Positions 1-5,644 of a stretch of 5,644 bases of DNA are shown piece after piece (within the stretch, counting starts at the first letter, position 1; each line of letters starts with the position of its first letter). Both the position numbers and the translations under genes were made by a program. A model generated the notes under the pieces. That model saw only the letters and a list, made by a program, of their open reading frames with translations, was not told the origin of the DNA and ran no database searches. The DNA comes from a virus (taxonomy: Duplodnaviria; Heunggongvirae; Uroviricota; Caudoviricetes): positions 1 to 5,644 of the IMG/VR virus record IMGVR_UViG_2684622552_000005. One strand, 5' to 3'.

Positions 1-568
1 TATCGCGTCCTCAACAATGAGTTTTGTGATGCGGTGCCTGGTGCCTCCAGGTGACGTTAACCAGTTAACAATTAACGCCGGATACAGAGAATCCACCCAT
101 AACACTGTTTTTGGTTTTAACTGTTCCGCGTGCGCTTAGCCGCATTCACCGCATCACAAAATTCACTTTAAAAAGGGCGGCAGAGCAGTCACGGAGTAAA
201 ACTGATACCGCCAAACGTCACCAGAAAATTGATAACAGAGGGCGTTGCAGCGGGGTTGTCACTTAAGCGTATGGTCAACCTGACAACCCGGTGTCCTCAA
301 CGGGGGAAGGAATAACCCCGCCATACTTACCGCCGCGCCATTTCGCGGATTGCCACAACCGGAAGCGCACGGTCGACGAAAATTTAACGACAGGCTATCT
401 ATGAACCAGCTACCTCGCCGTGCGCTTTCGCGTTATGGTCTGACTTTTCAGGGAAATATCCTTTCAGTAAACTGTCAGTGCCGGATGCTCACCCGTGTCC
501 GGCGCACGCACTCCACCTCACCCGTGGAGAACTCCTTAATTACCAACCTTAGCTTCGTTGGTTAGCTA

Positions 569-787
569 TTAACGCGGGTATGTAATCATTCTGGCAATGC
601 TTAATGCCGCTGCTTTTTCCAGATTGGTGATATCCTGCTCCAGAGAGGACAGATTTTCAGCCTGCTTAGCCCTGGCTTCATTGGCCCATTTCAGATCCTG
701 CGCTGCATTAATTTTCTGGTGCATCCACTCATAAAGTTCATCATCGGTATAGTCTGGCGCGATGATGACGGGTTCTCGTTTCTGCAT
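569..787 (-). CDS. Hypothetical small prophage early-left protein (72 aa)
   Basis: ATG-initiated ORF (plus-strand cat at 785-787); GAGGAA Shine-Dalgarno 5 nt upstream on the minus strand; co-oriented with and downstream of two other small ORFs and the repressor gene. No recognisable motif. Confidence 0.5.
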   Translation of the reverse strand: MQKREPVIIAPDYTDDELYEWMHQKINAAQDLKWANEARAKQAENLSSLEQDITNLEKAAALSIARMITYPR

Positions 788-816
788 ACTGATTCCTCGC
801 GGTGCTGTTTCGCTTA

Positions 817-945
817 TCAGCCGTTAGATTTTGCCGAACTGGAAAGCGCCTGTTTAAATTCGTTGAAGCTGAGAGCTTCTTCGCCTTCGGCAAGACCTTC
901 GAAGTATTCTTCGTAAGCCTTTTCCATGATTGTGTCGAAATCCAT
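817..945 (-). CDS. Hypothetical small acidic protein (42 aa), apparently translationally coupled to the upstream ORF
   Basis: Not in the ORF track (below its length cutoff). Hand translation: MDFDTIMEKAYEEYFEGLAEGEEALSFNEFKQALSSSAKSNG. ATG at 943-945 lies 1 nt after the TGA of ORF 947-1183 (TGAtATG); AGGTGA Shine-Dalgarno 5 nt upstream. The frame stays open upstream to about 1018, so a frameshifted remnant of a longer gene is an alternative. Confidence 0.35.
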   Translation of the reverse strand: MDFDTIMEKAYEEYFEGLAEGEEALSFNEFKQALSSSAKSNG

Positions 946-946
946 A

Positions 947-1183
947 TCACTCACCTGAGTTTCTTTCCAGCCAGCGACGGGCACCATTTTCGGTTTTAAA
1001 CGTTTTGCTTTTGGTATACGTCATCGCGGTGAACGTACCGTCCTGGTTGGGGAACACGCCACATACCAGAGATTCGCTGTTGCCAAGATCGATAGTATCC
1101 ATGCTGACCTCATTTCCCCTTAACGCCGGGGTAGCGGAACAAAAACCTGCTGCATAGTTATTAAAGTTGAACCCTGCCGTCAT
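947..1183 (-). CDS. Hypothetical small prophage protein (78 aa), first gene of the leftward operon
   Basis: ATG-initiated ORF (cat at 1181-1183) with GAGG about 9 nt upstream; lies directly downstream (leftward) of the putative OL/PL region. No recognisable motif. Confidence 0.5.
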   Translation of the reverse strand: MTAGFNFNNYAAGFCSATPALRGNEVSMDTIDLGNSESLVCGVFPNQDGTFTAMTYTKSKTFKTENGARRWLERNSGE

Positions 1184-1288
1184 GTTCTTACGCCTCGGGC
1201 TGGCTACTTAACCCCTGACCACTGCCTGGTAACTCGAAGTATTGCCCTGCATTCTGTGGGGCGGGGTGGGTTGGTATGAAAAGAAGGA

Positions 1289-1325
1289 TACCCATAGGTA
1301 TTTAAAAAGTAAATACCCATGGGTA
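1289..1325. promoter_or_regulatory. Putative OL: two 12-bp palindromic operator sites (TACCCATAGGTA at 1289-1300; perfect palindrome TACCCATGGGTA at 1314-1325), likely overlapping a leftward promoter
   Basis: Seen in sequence: two sites of the form TACC-N4-GGTA with centres 25 bp apart in the 185-bp gap between the repressor gene and the leftward small-gene operon. The same motif family recurs in the repressor/ydaS divergent region. Possible minus-strand -35 TTTACT / -10 TATCCT overlapping the sites (weak call). Confidence 0.5.
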
Positions 1326-1367
1326 ACTTTTTGCGATGTCTTAACTGGTGACTAGTTGTTTGGTGAG

Positions 1368-1787
1368 CTATGATGCGTTTTGTGCTTTCTTTTTACGGAT
1401 TTCTTCGTAGATCATATTGTAATACTGTTTTTTCTCTTCAAGAGTTTTTAATAATTTATCCGCTTCACTTTCTGGCAGTTCGTCTAAGAGATCTAAAAAA
1501 ATACGTTGTCGTGGCGTTAGAACCCTTGTTTCATAACTGGAGGCTGTGTTCGTTGATGATGAAACGATACCATCCATCCATCCCCGGGGTAACCCAAAGG
1601 ACTCTTCGATAATCTCCACCATATCATCAGCGATCCGTTTTTTTCCCTTTTTCCCCTCTGGGTACAACATTCTTGATACATAAGAAGGCTCGCGCCCGAT
1701 CTTTCTGGCCACGTTAACCGCTTTACCATCGCATTTCTCATCACGAATTTTGATGAGTTGCTGTCGTCTAAATTCATATTTGTCCAT
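1368..1787 (-). CDS. Prophage immunity repressor, HTH DNA-binding protein (CI / RacR-like functional analogue; no LexA-like peptidase domain)
   Basis: 139-aa ATG-initiated ORF. N-terminal segment (KAVNVARKIGREPSYVSRMLYPEGKKGKKRI) looks like a Cro/CI-type helix-turn-helix; the C-terminal half is charged and helical (likely dimerisation). Sits divergent from a Cro-like gene and between two operator clusters, the position of a lambdoid repressor. Confidence 0.75.
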   Translation of the reverse strand: MDKYEFRRQQLIKIRDEKCDGKAVNVARKIGREPSYVSRMLYPEGKKGKKRIADDMVEIIEESFGLPRGWMDGIVSSSTNTASSYETRVLTPRQRIFLDLLDELPESEADKLLKTLEEKKQYYNMIYEEIRKKKAQNAS

Positions 1788-1807
1788 AGGTAAATAATAG
1801 ATGCGAT

Positions 1808-1862
1808 TACCGCAAGGTAAACAACCTATGGGTATTGACTTTTGTTTACCTGTGGGTATTCT
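1808..1862. promoter_or_regulatory. Putative OR/PR: three operator-like sites (TACCGCAAGGTA 1808-1819; AACCTATGGGTA 1823-1834; TACCTGTGGGTA 1847-1858) overlapping a rightward sigma70-like promoter (-35 TTGACT 1835-1840, 16-bp spacer, -10 TATTCT 1857-1862)
   Basis: Seen in sequence. The sites share the TACC-N4-GGTA pattern with the OL sites. The promoter hexamers are positioned to drive ydaS (AAGGAG Shine-Dalgarno at 1877-1882, ATG at 1888). The three-site arrangement resembles lambda OR1-3. Confidence 0.5.
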
Positions 1863-1887
1863 TTGCTGTGTTTACTAAGGAGTAGCT

Positions 1888-2169
1888 ATGGAAGAATTAA
1901 GAATATTTCTCAATTCTCTTTCGTCAGATGAACAGCGTATGTTTGCATGCGAGTGTGGTACCAGCATCGGTTATCTAAGAAAGGCATTGAGTAAAGGTCA
2001 AGTGTTAGGGGCATCGTTATGTGTCCTTATTGAGCGAGCCAGTAATGGTGAAGTTACACGTCAGCAACTAAGGCCTTTTGATTGGATGAATATTTGGCCC
2101 GAGCTGGAAGATACCAAAACGTTAACACAACCACTTTCTAGGAGCTTGATTCATGAAAATCAAGCATGA
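1888..2169 (+). CDS. ydaS: YdaS-family Cro-like HTH regulator (93 aa)
   Basis: ATG with AAGGAG Shine-Dalgarno; divergent from the repressor. C-terminal motif IERASNGEVTRQQLRPFDW matches, from memory, the conserved IERAT.GEV...LRPD..W segment of Rac YdaS-family proteins. Its 3' end overlaps the start of the next gene by 17 nt. Confidence 0.7.
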   Translation: MEELRIFLNSLSSDEQRMFACECGTSIGYLRKALSKGQVLGASLCVLIERASNGEVTRQQLRPFDWMNIWPELEDTKTLTQPLSRSLIHENQA

Positions 2170-2578
2170 ACACATCCGCATGGCGATGAATGCCTGGGCG
2201 CATCCGGACGGTGAAAAAGTTCCGGCAGCTGAAATAACCAGGGCTTATTTTGAACTGGGTATGACGTTCCCAGAACTGTATGACGACAGCCATCCGGAAG
2301 CCCTGGCTCGCAATACCCAGAAAATTTTCCGCTGGGTAGAGAAAGACACCCCTGATGCAGTTGAAAAAATTCAGGCGTTGTTACCAGCGATCGAAAAGGC
2401 AATGCCACCTTTGCTGGTGGCCAGAATGCGCAGCCACAGTTCAGCTTATTTTCGGGAGCTGGTGGAGACGCGGGAGCGACTGGTGAGAGATGCTGATGAT
2501 TTTGTCGCAGTGGCAATCGCCGGTTTCAATCAGATGAACCGTGGTGGCCCGGCAGGAAATGCTGTGGCAGTGCATTGA
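2153..2578 (+). CDS. ydaT: YdaT-family protein (141 aa), CII-like regulator / reported toxic component of the Rac ydaS-ydaT module
   Basis: Starts MKIKHEHI, as I recall for E. coli Rac YdaT. AGGAG Shine-Dalgarno 8 nt upstream. Overlaps the ydaS stop, indicating co-transcription. Family assignment is from memory and positional context, not a search. Confidence 0.7.
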   Translation: MKIKHEHIRMAMNAWAHPDGEKVPAAEITRAYFELGMTFPELYDDSHPEALARNTQKIFRWVEKDTPDAVEKIQALLPAIEKAMPPLLVARMRSHSSAYFRELVETRERLVRDADDFVAVAIAGFNQMNRGGPAGNAVAVH

Positions 2579-2649
2579 GTGATAATAGCCATATCGAATC
2601 GCTTCCGGCAACTCGTGAGTAAAAAGATTCGGTATCAGAAGAGGTGAGT

Positions 2650-3720
2650 ATGGCTAACGCCTGGCTCAGATTATGGCATGACATGCCAAATGACCCTAAG
2701 TGGCGAACAATTGCCAGGGTGTCAGGGCAGCCAATTGCAACAGTGATGGCAGTGTATATCCACCTCCTGGTGAGCGCGTCACGAAATGTCACGCGAGGTC
2801 ACATTGATGTCACGACAGAAGATTTGGCAAGTGCGCTCGACGTGACAGAAGAGGTAATTGATTCAATTTTGCAGACGATGCAGGGGCGGGTACTTGATGG
2901 TGATTTAATCACTGGATGGGAAAAACGCCAGGTGCTTAAAGAGGACAACGGTAATATTTCGCAAACCGCAAAATCTCCTGCAGAGCGCAAGAGGGCGCAG
3001 CGAGAGAGGGAAAGAAAGCGGGAACAAAATGGCGATTGTCACGGCGCGTCACGAAATGTCACGCACATGTCACGACGAGTCACGACAGATAAAGATACAG
3101 ATAAAGATACAGATCAAGAAGATCAAAACACTATGGTCCATGGCGTAAAAAACGCCACGAACCAGGCAGGGGATGTTCAGACCGTCAATCCTGGTCAGCC
3201 AGCAGGCACGACACCGGAAGCCGATTCAGCGTATGCGCTGAAAGCCGATTCGGGCGCTGTGCAGCAGGTGATGACCCAAAGGCCGGAACAATCACACCAA
3301 CTGCAGCAGCCTGAAGCCGATTCCGCCATTCAGCGGGAAGCCGATCGGGTAGTCCCGGAAAACACCGGGCTGTCTGTGGGACGAGTGGATTATCCGGATG
3401 TGTTCGAACAGGTCTGGCGGGAGTACCCGTTGCGTGCCGGAGCAAACCCGAAGAAATCCGCTTTCAGTGCCTGGAAGGCCAGATTACGCGAGGGGGTGCC
3501 ACCAGAGGCCATGCTGGATGGCGTGAGGCGTTACGCAAGATACTTGGCGGCTACCGGGAAAACGGGAACGGAATTTGTTCAGCGAGCGACGACGTTTTTT
3601 GGACCGGACCGGAATTTTGAGAACCCCTGGTTGCTCCCGGTAAGCGGCACGAACAACCAGCGTTGTGTGAATCATATTTCTGAACCGGATAACGAAATTC
3701 CGCCGGGCTTCAGGGGGTAA
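2650..3720 (+). CDS. Phage replication initiator-like protein (lambda O-like organisation) with iterons inside the coding sequence
   Basis: The ORF track starts at GTG 2644; ATG 2650 with GAGG 5 nt upstream is the more likely start. The C-terminal region (VFEQVWREYPLRAGANPKKSAFSAWKARL...FVQRATTFFGPDRNFENPW) resembles the conserved C-terminal domain of phage replication proteins. Two clusters of GTCACG repeats and an AT-rich repeat lie within the gene. It occupies the position after cro/cII analogues. Confidence 0.7.
   Translation: MANAWLRLWHDMPNDPKWRTIARVSGQPIATVMAVYIHLLVSASRNVTRGHIDVTTEDLASALDVTEEVIDSILQTMQGRVLDGDLITGWEKRQVLKEDNGNISQTAKSPAERKRAQRERERKREQNGDCHGASRNVTHMSRRVTTDKDTDKDTDQEDQNTMVHGVKNATNQAGDVQTVNPGQPAGTTPEADSAYALKADSGAVQQVMTQRPEQSHQLQQPEADSAIQREADRVVPENTGLSVGRVDYPDVFEQVWREYPLRAGANPKKSAFSAWKARLREGVPPEAMLDGVRRYARYLAATGKTGTEFVQRATTFFGPDRNFENPWLLPVSGTNNQRCVNHISEPDNEIPPGFRG
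2778..2814. repeat. Iteron cluster 1: four copies of GTCAC(G/A) at 10-11 bp spacing (2778, 2788, 2798, 2809)
   Basis: Seen in sequence: cgTCACGaaatgTCACGcgaggTCACAttgatgTCACGacag. Helical-turn periodicity is typical of initiator-binding iterons. Confidence 0.55.
3038..3110. repeat. Iteron cluster 2 (five GTCACG copies at 3038, 3048, 3058, 3069, 3079) followed by a tandem AGATAAAGATAC x2 AT-rich repeat (3087-3110): putative prophage replication origin
   Basis: Seen in sequence. The first 21 bp of this cluster (gcgcgtcacgaaatgtcacgc) are identical to the start of cluster 1, about 270 bp upstream. An iteron array plus adjacent A+T-rich tract inside the initiator gene mirrors ori-lambda inside gene O. 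Confidence 0.55.
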
Positions 3721-3760
3721 GTGTTAATTTCTGGTCATGAGGTAATTTTCAGGAGGGCTT

Positions 3761-4186
3761 GTGGCAAAAGTTTTTACACAAGAAGAGCGGGAAAAAATTA
3801 AAGGGCAGGTTGTTGAACTCGTACGCCAGAGTGGGCGCGAGACGTTACGACAACTGGAAACTAAAACTGGGGCAACAAGATATCTGATGAGCGTTCTGGC
3901 CAGAGAGCTGGTTGCCAGTGGCGATGTATACAACTCTGGTTACGGGTTATTCCCGTCTGAACAGGCGCGTAAGGACTGGCAAAATGCCCGTAAAAAGCTC
4001 TCAAGGGCAAAGCTGAAGAAACCATCTGCGGTTGATCCGGACCTTATCTGGTCATTACCTGACGGAGAAATACGTCGCTACGATAGTTGTCTAAACATAA
4101 TCTGTCGCGAGTGCCGGAAGAGCGAAGTTATGCAGCGCATTCTGGCATTTTATCAGGGAAATGTTAGGTATTTTAGACGTTACTAG
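3761..4186 (+). CDS. Hypothetical protein (141 aa) of unknown function in the slot where a helicase loader is expected
   Basis: GTG start with a strong AGGAGG Shine-Dalgarno 4 nt upstream, 40 nt after the initiator gene. No Walker A motif seen. Contains a C-x4-C-x2-C cluster (CLNIICRECRK). Composition resembles the flanking phage genes, not the AT-rich gene downstream. Confidence 0.55.
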   Translation: MAKVFTQEEREKIKGQVVELVRQSGRETLRQLETKTGATRYLMSVLARELVASGDVYNSGYGLFPSEQARKDWQNARKKLSRAKLKKPSAVDPDLIWSLPDGEIRRYDSCLNIICRECRKSEVMQRILAFYQGNVRYFRRY

Positions 4187-4276
4187 ATTAAAGGGCATTA
4201 GTTCAGATATGCATTGACATTTTCATGGCACAAGGTAGAGCTAGCGTGGTTGTTCGCTTTGTGCCAAGAGTGGTCA

Positions 4277-4372
4277 TTGATAATATTTGGGTGGGTTACA
4301 TCTGTCAATGTTTCAGGTGATATGATATACAAATAGCCAGACTTAGACTGGCATGCTGTTTATTTTTATATT
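4277..4372 (+). promoter_or_regulatory. Candidate promoter(s) for the AT-rich cargo gene: extended -10 TGaTATGAT (4318-4326) and/or -35 TAGACT (4344-4349) with 17-bp spacer and -10 TATATT (4367-4372)
   Basis: Seen in sequence within a 215-bp AT-rich noncoding stretch between the stop at 4186 and the cargo gene start. Hexamer matches are by eye and not supported experimentally. Confidence 0.3.
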
Positions 4373-4413
4373 ATGGGTGTGCCACATGGATTTAAAACTT
4401 ATTGAGATATGAC

Positions 4414-5439
4414 ATGGATACTTTTCATAATATTTTGCTTGAGCACATAGACAGCCTTTTAAAAGAGAGACTTGATTTATCTGGTGACGCTGATATCGAA
4501 AAAGAAATTAATAACCTAATTCCCAAAATAGCCATTGTCGTTAAAAAATCTCTTATTGGCTCGGCCAATGCAATGCTTAGAGAACATCGTTCTCTTTGTG
4601 ATGAATTTGTTGAGAGAAATATTTCAAGATGGGCAGAGGCTTTTGATTTGCTCGAAACACTTATAGTGATATGCACGGAGTCCGGTGAAGAGTTCAATCG
4701 TTCTTATAGACCACAAGCTGCCTCTGAAGAGGATGTGGTTTTTGATTTAGTCGTTCGGCATCACGCAAGAGCTTGCCACATCGCCAACGAAATTTTGTGT
4801 CTCTTAAAGAATGGATTTGCAGATGCTGCCCAAGCGAGATGGCGAGCACTTCATGAGGTAGCGGCCACAGCTATGTTTATAGCAAAGCATGGAAAAGAGT
4901 GTGCTGAGCGCTTTTACTACCATGAAGTGGTTGATTCATATACTGGAATGTTGGAACACAAAAAGTACGAGCACCGGTTAGAAGCAAAAGGTCCAACTAT
5001 TGAAGAAATAGCTGAGTGTAAAGTTCAATTTGATCTATTAATAAAAAAATACGGCAAAAAATATGCAGATAATTATGGGTGGGCATCTTATATTTTCCCT
5101 AACCATAATAAAGTGGGGTTTGGAGCTATTGAGAAAGATGTTCAGTTAGAACACATGCGCCCTTATTATAAGTGGGCGAGTCAGAATGTACACACCGGTT
5201 CCAAGGCAATGAGAAATAGGCTTGGTCTCTGTGAAACTGGTGATGATATATTATTGGTCGGGCAAAGTGATTCAGGAATGGCTGATCCAGCCCATGCTAC
5301 TGCTATTAGTTTGATGCAGATTACTGTGACACTTTTATTCTTAAAACCAACCATTGATCATGCCGTCATTTCAAAAATAATACAGGATTATTCTGATGAG
5401 ATTGGAAATGTATTTCTTAAAATTGATAAGGGTAATTAA
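4414..5439 (+). CDS. AT-rich cargo ORF of unknown function (about 341 aa from ATG 4414; the track start at 4402 is a TTG); candidate accessory / anti-phage protein
   Basis: Long uninterrupted ORF whose base composition is visibly more A+T-rich than the flanking prophage genes. It has its own upstream noncoding region. No transmembrane stretch, P-loop or other recognisable catalytic motif was seen by eye. One R-x6-H segment (RHHARACH, about 4756-4779) is noted only as a weak HEPN-like hint. It lies between the replication module and an IS element, a typical prophage moron/defence-island position. Confidence 0.75.
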   Translation: MDTFHNILLEHIDSLLKERLDLSGDADIEKEINNLIPKIAIVVKKSLIGSANAMLREHRSLCDEFVERNISRWAEAFDLLETLIVICTESGEEFNRSYRPQAASEEDVVFDLVVRHHARACHIANEILCLLKNGFADAAQARWRALHEVAATAMFIAKHGKECAERFYYHEVVDSYTGMLEHKKYEHRLEAKGPTIEEIAECKVQFDLLIKKYGKKYADNYGWASYIFPNHNKVGFGAIEKDVQLEHMRPYYKWASQNVHTGSKAMRNRLGLCETGDDILLVGQSDSGMADPAHATAISLMQITVTLLFLKPTIDHAVISKIIQDYSDEIGNVFLKIDKGN

Positions 5440-5518
5440 AAATTGGAAAAGTGATAGTATATTCTTGTTTTTTTTACTGGTAATTAAATGTTTTTAAAGT
5501 TACTAGTTCACACCTATC

Positions 5519-5644
5519 TGAATCGCCACGGGTTTAACAGACACCTCAGAGTCATTTAAGATGGCTTAAAGAGAGGTGCCCATGAGCGGTAAGCGTTATC
5601 CCGAAGAGTTTAAAACTGAAGCAGTCAAACAGGTTGTTGCTCAA
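5519..5644 (+). mobile_element. Left end of an IS3-family insertion sequence (putative left inverted repeat starting TGAATCGCCACGGGTTT at 5519), truncated by the window edge
   Basis: Begins with TG and is GC-rich, like IS3-family terminal repeats as I recall them. It lies 63 bp upstream of an OrfA-like start preceded by AGAGAGGTG, similar to the spacing and Shine-Dalgarno context I recall for IS3. Exact boundary is uncertain; the right end is not in the window. Confidence 0.55.
5582..5644 (+). CDS. IS3-family transposase OrfA, N-terminal fragment (continues beyond the window)
   Basis: Hand translation MSGKRYPEEFKTEAVKQVVAQ matches the characteristic N-terminus of IS3-family OrfA proteins (K-R-x-[YF]-x-x-E-F-K-x-E-A-V). 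ATG at 5582 with a GAGAGGTG Shine-Dalgarno upstream. Confidence 0.65.
   Translation, partial: MSGKRYPEEFKTEAVKQVVAQ

Follow-up and report, generated by a model that had tools for sequence, protein, structure and literature searches.

In the pdif modules of Acinetobacter plasmids, XerC/XerD sites flank exchangeable modules, and engineered recombinase-mediated cassette exchange (RMCE) makes use of heterospecific lox/FRT sites. Very fast turnover of the genes in variable slots has been described for the phages P2 and P4 (PMC13586616, PMC9122126). How defence genes are replaced this fast in prophages and satellites has yet to be explained, and recent large surveys of such hotspots document the turnover without a mechanism (PMC13586616). 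Here, we describe a 5,644-nucleotide stretch of DNA from a virus of the Caudoviricetes (IMG/VR record IMGVR_UViG_2684622552_000005, positions 1 to 5,644), which is called the window in its full length and represented the early region of an Escherichia coli prophage, lambdoid and of the Qin/Rac type. Our subject was the gap between its DUF977 gene and the downstream gene for a DUF5677 protein. An earlier note had taken this gap for an AT-rich regulatory region, in which two inverted repeats (IR1 and IR2) and an extended -10 promoter might control the downstream "cargo" gene. We concluded that the gap was probably composite, consisting of a backbone border that ended in an exchange seam and a cassette leader with a likely promoter, and that IR1 and IR2 were not cargo-specific operators. 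For the question as first posed, this result was rather ordinary: the cargo probably had its own promoter, and the repeats were not its operators. The more interesting content was found at positions 4252-4275, which held a member of a junction-palindrome family marking cassette boundaries in several kinds of mobile elements.

The gap joins a phage border to a cassette leader

The gap comprised 227 bp, from the DUF977 stop codon (4184-4186) to the ATG of the DUF5677 gene (4414), and not the 215 bp of noncoding DNA that had been counted before. The features at issue were the following.

3761-4186, plus strand: DUF977 / Ren-like gene (Pfam DUF977, E = 9e-29; PHROG 142 "Ren-like exclusion protein", E = 8e-46)
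4187-4275, plus strand: conserved left border, belonging to the phage backbone and not to the cargo
4252-4275: L-type 24-bp palindrome of 9-6-9 layout (5' arm GTTCGCTTT, 4252-4260; spacer GTGCCA, 4261-4266; 3' arm AGAGTGGTC, 4267-4275)
4276-4413, plus strand: cassette-borne leader of the DUF5677 gene, 138 nt
4414-5439, plus strand: cargo gene for a DUF5677 protein of 341 amino acids (Pfam PF18928, E = 5.8e-34)
5440-5522, plus strand: cassette trailer, shortened by an insertion sequence (IS)
5523-5644, plus strand: left end of an IS3-family element (TGAATCGCCACGG...), identified by aligning it to an uninterrupted locus and to another, independent IS copy (RefSeq "IS3 family transposase")

The gene at 4414 had been regarded as cargo, and it did occupy a variable prophage slot. 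The DUF977 gene was the constant left neighbour and preceded this slot in all annotated loci. Between DUF977 and hokD, the prophages carried QueH, the retron Ec67, a KwaB-like pair, an NgoMIV-type restriction-modification system, HEPN, DUF4209 (on the opposite strand), SEC-C, a BCCT transporter or DUF5677, and the same hotspot layout was present in phages mEp460 and Tritos. In the uninterrupted relatives of the window, the DUF5677 gene was followed by hokD and late-regulatory genes.

A sensitive search with the gap alone recovered its first ~80-98 nt at 80-90% identity in ~2,280 of the 5,426 complete E. coli genomes, and the whole gap in 73 of them. Moreover, in forty-odd distinct borders, taken from IMG/VR contigs as well as from E. 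coli genomes, the sequences were alike through the palindrome, and the cargos diverged right after it. Since the border was common to unrelated cargos and the divergence began after the palindrome, positions 4187-4275 were assigned to the backbone and only positions 4276-4413 to the cargo. Homology of the leader in Salmonella, Pectobacterium and Providencia started with (A/G)TTGATAAT directly after the L site and continued into the gene, and both the leader and a trailer of ~80 nt were conserved at ~76-85% across genera.

Junction sites at the cassette borders

The palindrome of the window was a degenerate member of the L-type sites, whose consensus was GTCCGCTTT-GTGCCA-AAAGCGGAC. The right border of the hotspot opened with a sister R site, GTCCGCTYY-TCGCTC-AAAGCGGAC, followed by TAGAAGGTTAGC. 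All 25 distinct cargo configurations for which both borders were present in the fetched DNA had an L site at their left border and an R site at their right border (a larger tally of the same check comprised 42 loci). Internal sites divided the cassettes in loci L025, L047, L073, L104 and L115. An identical first cassette in the last four of these ended with ...GTCTGCTTT GTGCCA and was followed by four different cassettes, with the divergence starting directly after GTGCCA. When arms with at most 4 mismatches in 18 were counted as a match, 1.34 Mb of phage loci contained 175 sites as compared to 3.8 in shuffles, and all of them were located at cassette borders except for one recurrent place.

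This recurrent match outside the hotspot (GTCAGATCT TGCGGA AAAGCTGAC, at ~16,126-16,149 of locus L001 and in 3 other loci) was situated near iraM and a DUF1737 pseudogene, and the iraM-side palindrome may mark a second slot.

The window itself lacked the R site because the IS3-family element had entered 4 nt before it. Uninterrupted copies went on with ...CACCTATC|GAAC GTCCGGTCT TCGCCC AAAGCGGAC TAGAAGG, in which the R site led into the hokD-side backbone, and the insertion point was 4 nt upstream of the start of the R-site palindrome. The exact cassette-IS junction of the window was found in none of the 5,426 genomes. Repetitive extragenic palindromic (REP) sequences are known targets of some IS3-family elements, and the position of this insertion beside the R site may be non-random. 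Between the R site and hokD, the right-hand backbone of L001 (~11,070-11,160) contained a conserved small open reading frame (ORF) for a hydrophobic peptide of ~30 amino acids (VLVLKCALAIAAVMAIYCLAVVLMDRLSD).

The same sites were found in other mobile elements. The DUF5677 cassette was present in an integrase island of Salmonella, in a Pectobacterium locus and in a Providencia island beside a P4-type integrase. In these three genera, the DNA homology to the window began at the L site and ended at the R site, the flanks were unrelated, and no target-site duplications were seen around the cassette. In Providencia, 17 nt separated an R site from a subsequent L site, after which came a second cassette.

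A two-by-two comparison was provided by the HEPN (L008) and retron Ec67 (L009) cassettes, which were also present in a second E. coli backbone, a chromosomal island near yagU/paoD. The phage backbone had the form GTCCGCTTT GTGCCA | ... | TCGCTC AAAGCGGAC, and the island backbone on the yagU/paoD side had the form ...GGCTGCTAT GTGCCA | cassette | TCGCTC ATAACAGAC... In both backbones, the inner arms were AAAGCGGAC ... TTC(C/T)G(T/C)TGT for the HEPN cassette and GAGGCGGAC ... TTCCGTTCC for the retron. Between a point inside the 5' arm of the L site and the last base of the R spacer, the phage and island copies were 99.3-99.6% identical. Thus, the two-by-two pattern showed that cassettes had been exchanged between unrelated backbones. 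In this pattern, in the arrays and in the cross-genus comparison, the breakpoints were in or at the 6-bp spacers, the outer arms segregated with the backbone, and the inner arms segregated with the cassette. The island loci (L137-L143 and L337/L338) had their sites at the cassette borders. One L-type site in L337 (GGCTGCTAT GTGCCA AAAGCAGAG, 486-509, within the region 419-509) overlapped the end of an 82-nt tRNA-Pro annotated by RefSeq, for which ARAGORN reported no tRNA.

These observations identified the L and R palindromes as the seams of cassette exchange between mobile elements, and we propose the following mechanism for it. Cassettes would pass between elements at these seams, and the different spacers of the L and R sites would make the two ends of a cassette mutually incompatible. 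Recombination of L with L and of R with R would then swap the cassette without deletion, as in pdif modules or engineered RMCE. We tentatively suggest that the L and R palindromes may be the sites of an undescribed cassette-exchange system, which would move cassettes with defence genes and other cargo among lambdoid prophages, integrase-borne islands and chromosomal hotspots of Enterobacterales, would rely on two incompatible site types that favour swap over loss, and would be kin to a palindrome family found across phyla. Among 33 distinct borders, the arms of the L site were paired in 85% of cells, and the covariation was not above that of shuffles. The lack of covariation is more easily reconciled with recognition of the sequence by a protein than with a helix under selection.

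A palindrome family across phyla

A search for the perfect palindrome with one genome per species returned at least 120 matches, as compared to ~9 occurrences expected by chance in 596 Gb (from 4^-18 per position). The matches listed were from Alpha-, Beta- and Gammaproteobacteria, Chloroflexota, Udaeobacter and Nitrospinaceae; their spacers conformed to G(G/T/C)G(T/C)C(A/G) or to the complementary pattern, with the palindrome extending to AAT...ATT. In soil Alphaproteobacteria, the copies were located between ordinary genes and were often clustered ~20 nt apart, similar to REP sequences and bacterial interspersed mosaic elements (BIME). Some of them (L152, L158, L161, L168, L171, L193 and others) formed tandem clusters with the alternating spacers GGGTCA, ACCCCCRA and GTGCCA and a semi-conserved linker ATGTGCAGYGCAAAAGSNCAT. 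Gene callers rendered such clusters as spurious N-termini, for example MSAKCHKQT.

Several observations weighed against the proposed exchange at L and R sites. There was no clean empty site among the 5,426 genomes, in which a synthetic border-to-border query detected only one near-empty locus with a 235-bp remnant. One and the same backbone carried the spacer GCGTCA or GTGCCA (L004 vs L076), and the crossover points were not strictly fixed. The long conserved flanks in E. coli phages permit ordinary homologous recombination. The integrases near the sites were unrelated among the contexts, and no recombinase or other gene family recurred as a neighbour near the 120 perfect palindromes listed, where only common transporter paralogues were repeatedly found. 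Finally, the abundant intergenic REP-like copies in Alphaproteobacteria and other phyla would be dangerous if all of them were recombinogenic.

In an alternative that we considered rather unlikely, the palindromes are selfish REP-like repeats that lie in intergenic DNA by chance, and the cassettes move by ordinary or RecET/Red-type short-homology recombination, for which the repeats and the long phage flanks serve as stretches of similarity and no dedicated enzyme is needed. It agreed with the BIME-like clusters, ~20 nt apart, between ordinary genes of Alphaproteobacteria and other phyla, with the lack of a recurrent recombinase gene nearby, with the presence of exonuclease VIII (RecE) in these prophages, and with the slight variation of the crossover positions within phage backbones. 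However, nearly all sites in the ~1.3 Mb of enterobacterial phage DNA marked cassette borders, and across genera the L and R types of spacer were kept apart. Moreover, the phage and island backbones shared only the site at their joints (~6 bp of spacer and 6 of the 9 arm positions), which is very little for an exchange driven by homology, yet two different cassettes had been exchanged precisely there. These facts argued against this alternative.

A candidate promoter in the cassette leader

Ten homologous leaders (E. coli, Salmonella, Pectobacterium, Providencia, Klebsiella and metagenomes) were aligned, and the mean column identity was 76%. Three features of the leader are considered here.

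4318-4326, plus strand: candidate extended -10, TG-A-TATGAT (hexamer 4321-4326)
4336-4367, plus strand: weak stem-loop GCCAG-ACTTAGA-CTGGC with a T-rich run in the presumed 5' untranslated region (UTR), called terminator-like
4280-4308, minus strand: near-consensus sigma-70-like site TTGACA-17-TATTAT with 11/12 matches, pointing to the L site and the 3' end of DUF977

The TGnTATGAT element noticed earlier was indeed present (TGATATGAT, 4318-4326), with the TG at 4318-4319 and the TATGAT hexamer at 4321-4326. In the ten leaders, T1 and A2 of the hexamer were conserved in at least 90% and A5 and T6 in 100%, and positions 3-4 varied. Judging from the aligned leaders, this was the pattern that would be expected of a working -10. 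The hexamer also had the A at position 2 and the T at position 6 of a sigma-70 -10 element, and the GAGAG before the ATG was conserved in the ten leaders. We suggest a sigma-70 promoter with the -10 TATGAT at 4321-4326, a TG extension in this lineage, a 5' UTR of ~80 nt and a GAGA Shine-Dalgarno sequence. Such a promoter would let the cargo be expressed independently in a lysogen, as morons are. On the other side, three points spoke against this assignment. No usable -35 was recognised for the TATGAT element, so that the promoter scan left it unlisted; the TG was present in only ~5 of the 10 homologous leaders (by eye); and the motif taken alone was not above chance.

Thus, an autonomous cassette promoter was plausible, given its conservation. 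With respect to the claim that the cargo gene was independently regulated, a promoter of its own was the most likely arrangement in view of the -10 conserved in ten leaders, and the part that assigned the control to the repeats did not hold.

A second promoter candidate, TAGACT-17-TATATT, was ranked below TATGAT, since a 19-nt spacer would be needed to reach the conserved TATTAT in the homologues. The near-consensus site on the minus strand, which the promoter scan did list, had the right arm of IR2 as its -35; this -35 was confined to the E. coli form of the cassette, in which two substitutions specific to that form had created the site. An upstream ORF at 4386 (MDLKLIEI) was rejected because it was not conserved across the homologous leaders. 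The 5' UTR had no significant fold (z = 0.06), and the stem at 4336-4352 had 5 pairs and -7.5 kcal/mol (z = -1.05), which is short of a terminator. The sequence of the stem-loop at 4336-4367 was conserved, and its pairing was often broken in the homologues (by eye).

RNA folding of the border

4226-4266, plus strand: IR1, also called hairpin A, in which TGGCACAAGG (4226-4235) pairs with CTTTGTGCCA (4257-4266)

Hairpin A was the most stable fold of the border RNA of the window (-22.3 kcal/mol, z = -3.4). It was paired in 92% of cells among the 33 distinct borders, and its covariation was marginal (19-27 of 500 shuffles reached it). Since IR1 overlapped the L site, hairpin A excluded the palindrome's own hairpin.

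Such a structure might suggest that the border acts as RNA where the early-right operon ends, and that hairpin A or a second helix, hairpin B, terminates, processes or insulates the transcripts of the replication genes. The position after the ren-like gene recalls tR2 of lambda. Besides the fold in the window, a stable plus-strand fold was found in L003 (-23.1 kcal/mol, z = -2.7), many changes in the arms kept G.U pairs that work only on the plus strand, and the two helices were mutually exclusive, as in attenuators. However, hairpins A and B were not followed by a T run, so no intrinsic terminator was recognised in them, and only the weak stem at 4336-4352 was called terminator-like. Hairpin A showed marginal covariation and hairpin B none, and the palindrome also flanked opposite-strand cassettes (L003, L133, L134) and occurred in contexts without an upstream operon. 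No Rfam family matched positions 4187-4413 or any of five palindrome-rich loci. We therefore considered a role of the border as an RNA element improbable.

The inverted repeats do not behave as cargo-specific operators

The inverted repeats had been interpreted as possible binding sites of a repressor that tightly controlled the cargo gene, with H-NS silencing of the AT-rich DNA as another possibility.

4212-4219: left arm of IR2, CATTGACA, a backbone sequence that most other prophages had as AATTGACA
4303-4310: right arm of IR2, TGTCAATG, in the cassette leader (E. coli lineage only)

Both repeats existed as described. The arms of IR1 were GGCACAA (4227-4233) and TTGTGCC (4259-4265); it extended to 8 bp (TGGCACAA, 4226-4233, and TTGTGCCA, 4259-4266) and reached 10 pairs when G.T pairs were allowed (4226-4235 with 4257-4266). 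IR2 was present at the positions listed above and bracketed the candidate promoter. Nevertheless, the motifs were statistically unremarkable. In 2,000 dinucleotide-preserving shuffles of the 227 bp, two 8-bp inverted repeats were obtained in 9.6% and at least one in 27%, and TGNTANNAT occurred 4 times in the window as compared to 3.2 expected. Since the listed motifs were no commoner than chance, their meaning had to come from the comparison with other loci and not from their presence.

This comparison separated the arms of each repeat. The right arm of IR2 was replaced in the same cassette elsewhere by TGTTATTG, TGTAATTG, TGTTATT or TGTATTG; because it differed in the homologous cassettes, IR2 was taken as an accident of the E. 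coli lineage. The left arm of IR1 belonged to the backbone and was also found upstream of QueH, the retron, HEPN, restriction-modification and other cargos, and the copies of the DUF5677 cassette in Salmonella, Pectobacterium and Providencia were not preceded by it. The right arm of IR1 fell on the spacer of the junction palindrome that was present at all cassette borders. Thus, in IR1 a backbone motif located further upstream paired with part of the L site, namely its spacer and the end of its 5' arm.

With both left arms in a backbone common to unrelated cargos, the IR1 left arm not preceding the cassette in contexts other than E. coli phages, the IR2 right arm absent from the same cassette in four other genera, and two such repeats arising by chance in ~10% of shuffles, the operator model was very improbable. 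Moreover, no regulator gene was linked to the cargo: the cassette consisted of one gene, and its neighbours differed in every context examined. The earlier note had proposed to check the conservation of the repeats upstream of homologous cargo genes and had named their absence from otherwise conserved loci as the outcome that would speak against it. This was the outcome obtained, as the right arm of IR2 and the left arm of IR1 were absent in Salmonella, Pectobacterium, Providencia and Klebsiella, and the operators of a cargo-specific repressor had to be abandoned. AT-richness is typical of H-NS targets, and the gap was AT-rich as stated (37% G+C as compared to 47-49% in the phage genes), at a level similar to that of the cargo gene (39%).

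Two other readings of motifs in the gap were rejected. A small ORF in the border (ATG at 4225, 31 codons) lost its start in other backbones, and indels broke its frame. A sigma-54 reading of TGGCAC had the wrong spacing to any GC element (by eye). The L-spacer motif TGTGCCA occurred a third time at 4379-4385, just 5' of the start codon, and was partly kept in other genera as GCGCCAC, GTGCCAC or TTGCCAT; extra copies of TGTGCCA near the L site were inconsistent across other cassettes (background of 0.64 per kb), and the third copy is noted as an observation.

The cargo gene and its integron relatives

Homologues of the DUF5677 protein at 60-89% identity were found across many phyla, a conservation that was unusually high for a gene of no known function. 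PADLOC had no match for DUF5677 or DUF977, and in a test of ORFs in Enterococcus, one with DUF5677 did not belong to those that gave protection. DUF5677 was also a widespread integron cassette: at 60-66% identity, it occurred as an ordinary cassette of this kind in Colwellia, Sulfurovum, Desulfuromonas and Kushneria (L264-L267). These integron versions had R' as GTTATGA or GTTATAA ~20 nt before the start codon and an attC right after the stop, starting with CATAACAAG (ATAACAAG; CGTAACAAG in Kushneria, L267), and the Colwellia locus encoded an IntI-like integrase.

The view that the sites are degenerate or miniature integron attC and the cassette a stranded integron cassette, which would fit these homologues and the AAC|GTCCGC and GCGGAC|(G/A)TT often seen beside the inner arms of E. 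coli cassettes, was hardly credible, because the palindrome was fully paired as 9-6-9 (up to 12-6-12) without an unpaired spacer or extrahelical bases, no intI gene was found in the window or in L001-L143, the cargo was in either orientation, the breakpoints were at the spacers and not at G|TT, the AAT...ATT extension was general to the palindrome family in genomes where it was not of integron type, and the 138-nt leader and ~80-nt trailer of the enterobacterial cassette were missing from the integron versions.

Other features of the window

The remaining features were located upstream of the DUF977 gene.

175-226, minus strand: DicF small RNA (Rfam, 76.7 bits, E = 3e-16, full-length)
23-163, minus strand: STnc100 match adjoining DicF, sub-threshold (38.8 bits, gathering score 47)
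1368-1787, minus strand: cI-like repressor gene

The cI-like gene was followed by a cro/YdaS-like gene, a YdaT-like gene, the replisome organiser and then the DUF977 gene. The replisome-organiser gene contained two clusters of GTCACG-type repeats (GCGTCACGAAATGTCACGC...GTCACGAC), at 2775-2815 and 3045-3085, which resembled origin iterons such as those of lambda O.

Comparison with known systems

Similar to morons and to the defence hotspots of P2/P4 and lambdoid phages, the locus had a variable slot between conserved phage genes with AT-rich foreign genes. Many of the cargos were anti-phage (retron Ec67, the KwaB-like gene, restriction-modification, HEPN), the turnover between near-identical phages was very fast, and the cargo apparently had its own promoter. 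However, the P2/P4 hotspots were defined by their flanking genes, whereas here a 24-bp site was present at every joint. Palindromes, hairpins and inverted repeats at the joints were not mentioned for P2 and P4 (PMC13586616), and the searchable literature yielded neither a description of such joints nor the site sequence. No terminator was found after the cargo.

The core spacer of the R64 shufflon sfx site, on which the tyrosine recombinase Rci acts, is GTGCCAA (PMC4176322). The L spacer with the next base was GTGCCA(A/G), and this likeness of a 6-7-mer may be due to chance. An Rci/sfx site was rejected, since only the core matched, the 12-bp right arm TCCGGTACGTGG and the 31-bp asymmetric layout differed, and there was no rci nearby.

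With REP/BIME, the sites shared the character of a short intergenic palindrome, the clusters with alternating loop types and a linker in Alphaproteobacteria, and the IS insertion 4 nt from the R site. In contrast, REP families are usually species-specific, and the palindrome was near-identical across phyla; in the 1.34 Mb of enterobacterial phage DNA it was almost confined to cassette borders, and the same applied to two further enterobacterial contexts. The likeness to integrons was in the promoter-poor single-gene cassettes in arrays, in a structured palindromic site at each joint and in the same DUF5677 family. The sites described here were, however, much shorter and perfectly paired, the gene orientation was free, the breakpoint was at the centre of the site, and the cassette brought its own leader.

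In layout, the locus resembled pdif modules and RMCE, with modules between short arm-spacer-arm sites that have 6-bp centres. The same module was found in different replicons, the outer half-sites belonged to the context, and two site types would prevent simple deletion. The arms GTCCGCTTT and AAAGCGGAC were near-identical inverted copies, unlike the XerC (GGTGCGCATAA) or XerD (TTATGTTAAAT) arms, and an 11-6-11 Xer site (dif/pdif) was rejected, since only the 6-bp centre was shared and the arms were mismatched (by eye against the dif sequence of the literature).

A short site at every joint, common to phages, islands and genera, would make the question of how defence genes are swapped directly testable. 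It would also let cassette boundaries be predicted from sequence and help to find new cargo genes. If our tentative proposal of an exchange system at the L and R sites is correct, it would be a natural counterpart of RMCE, distinct from both integrons and Xer/pdif.

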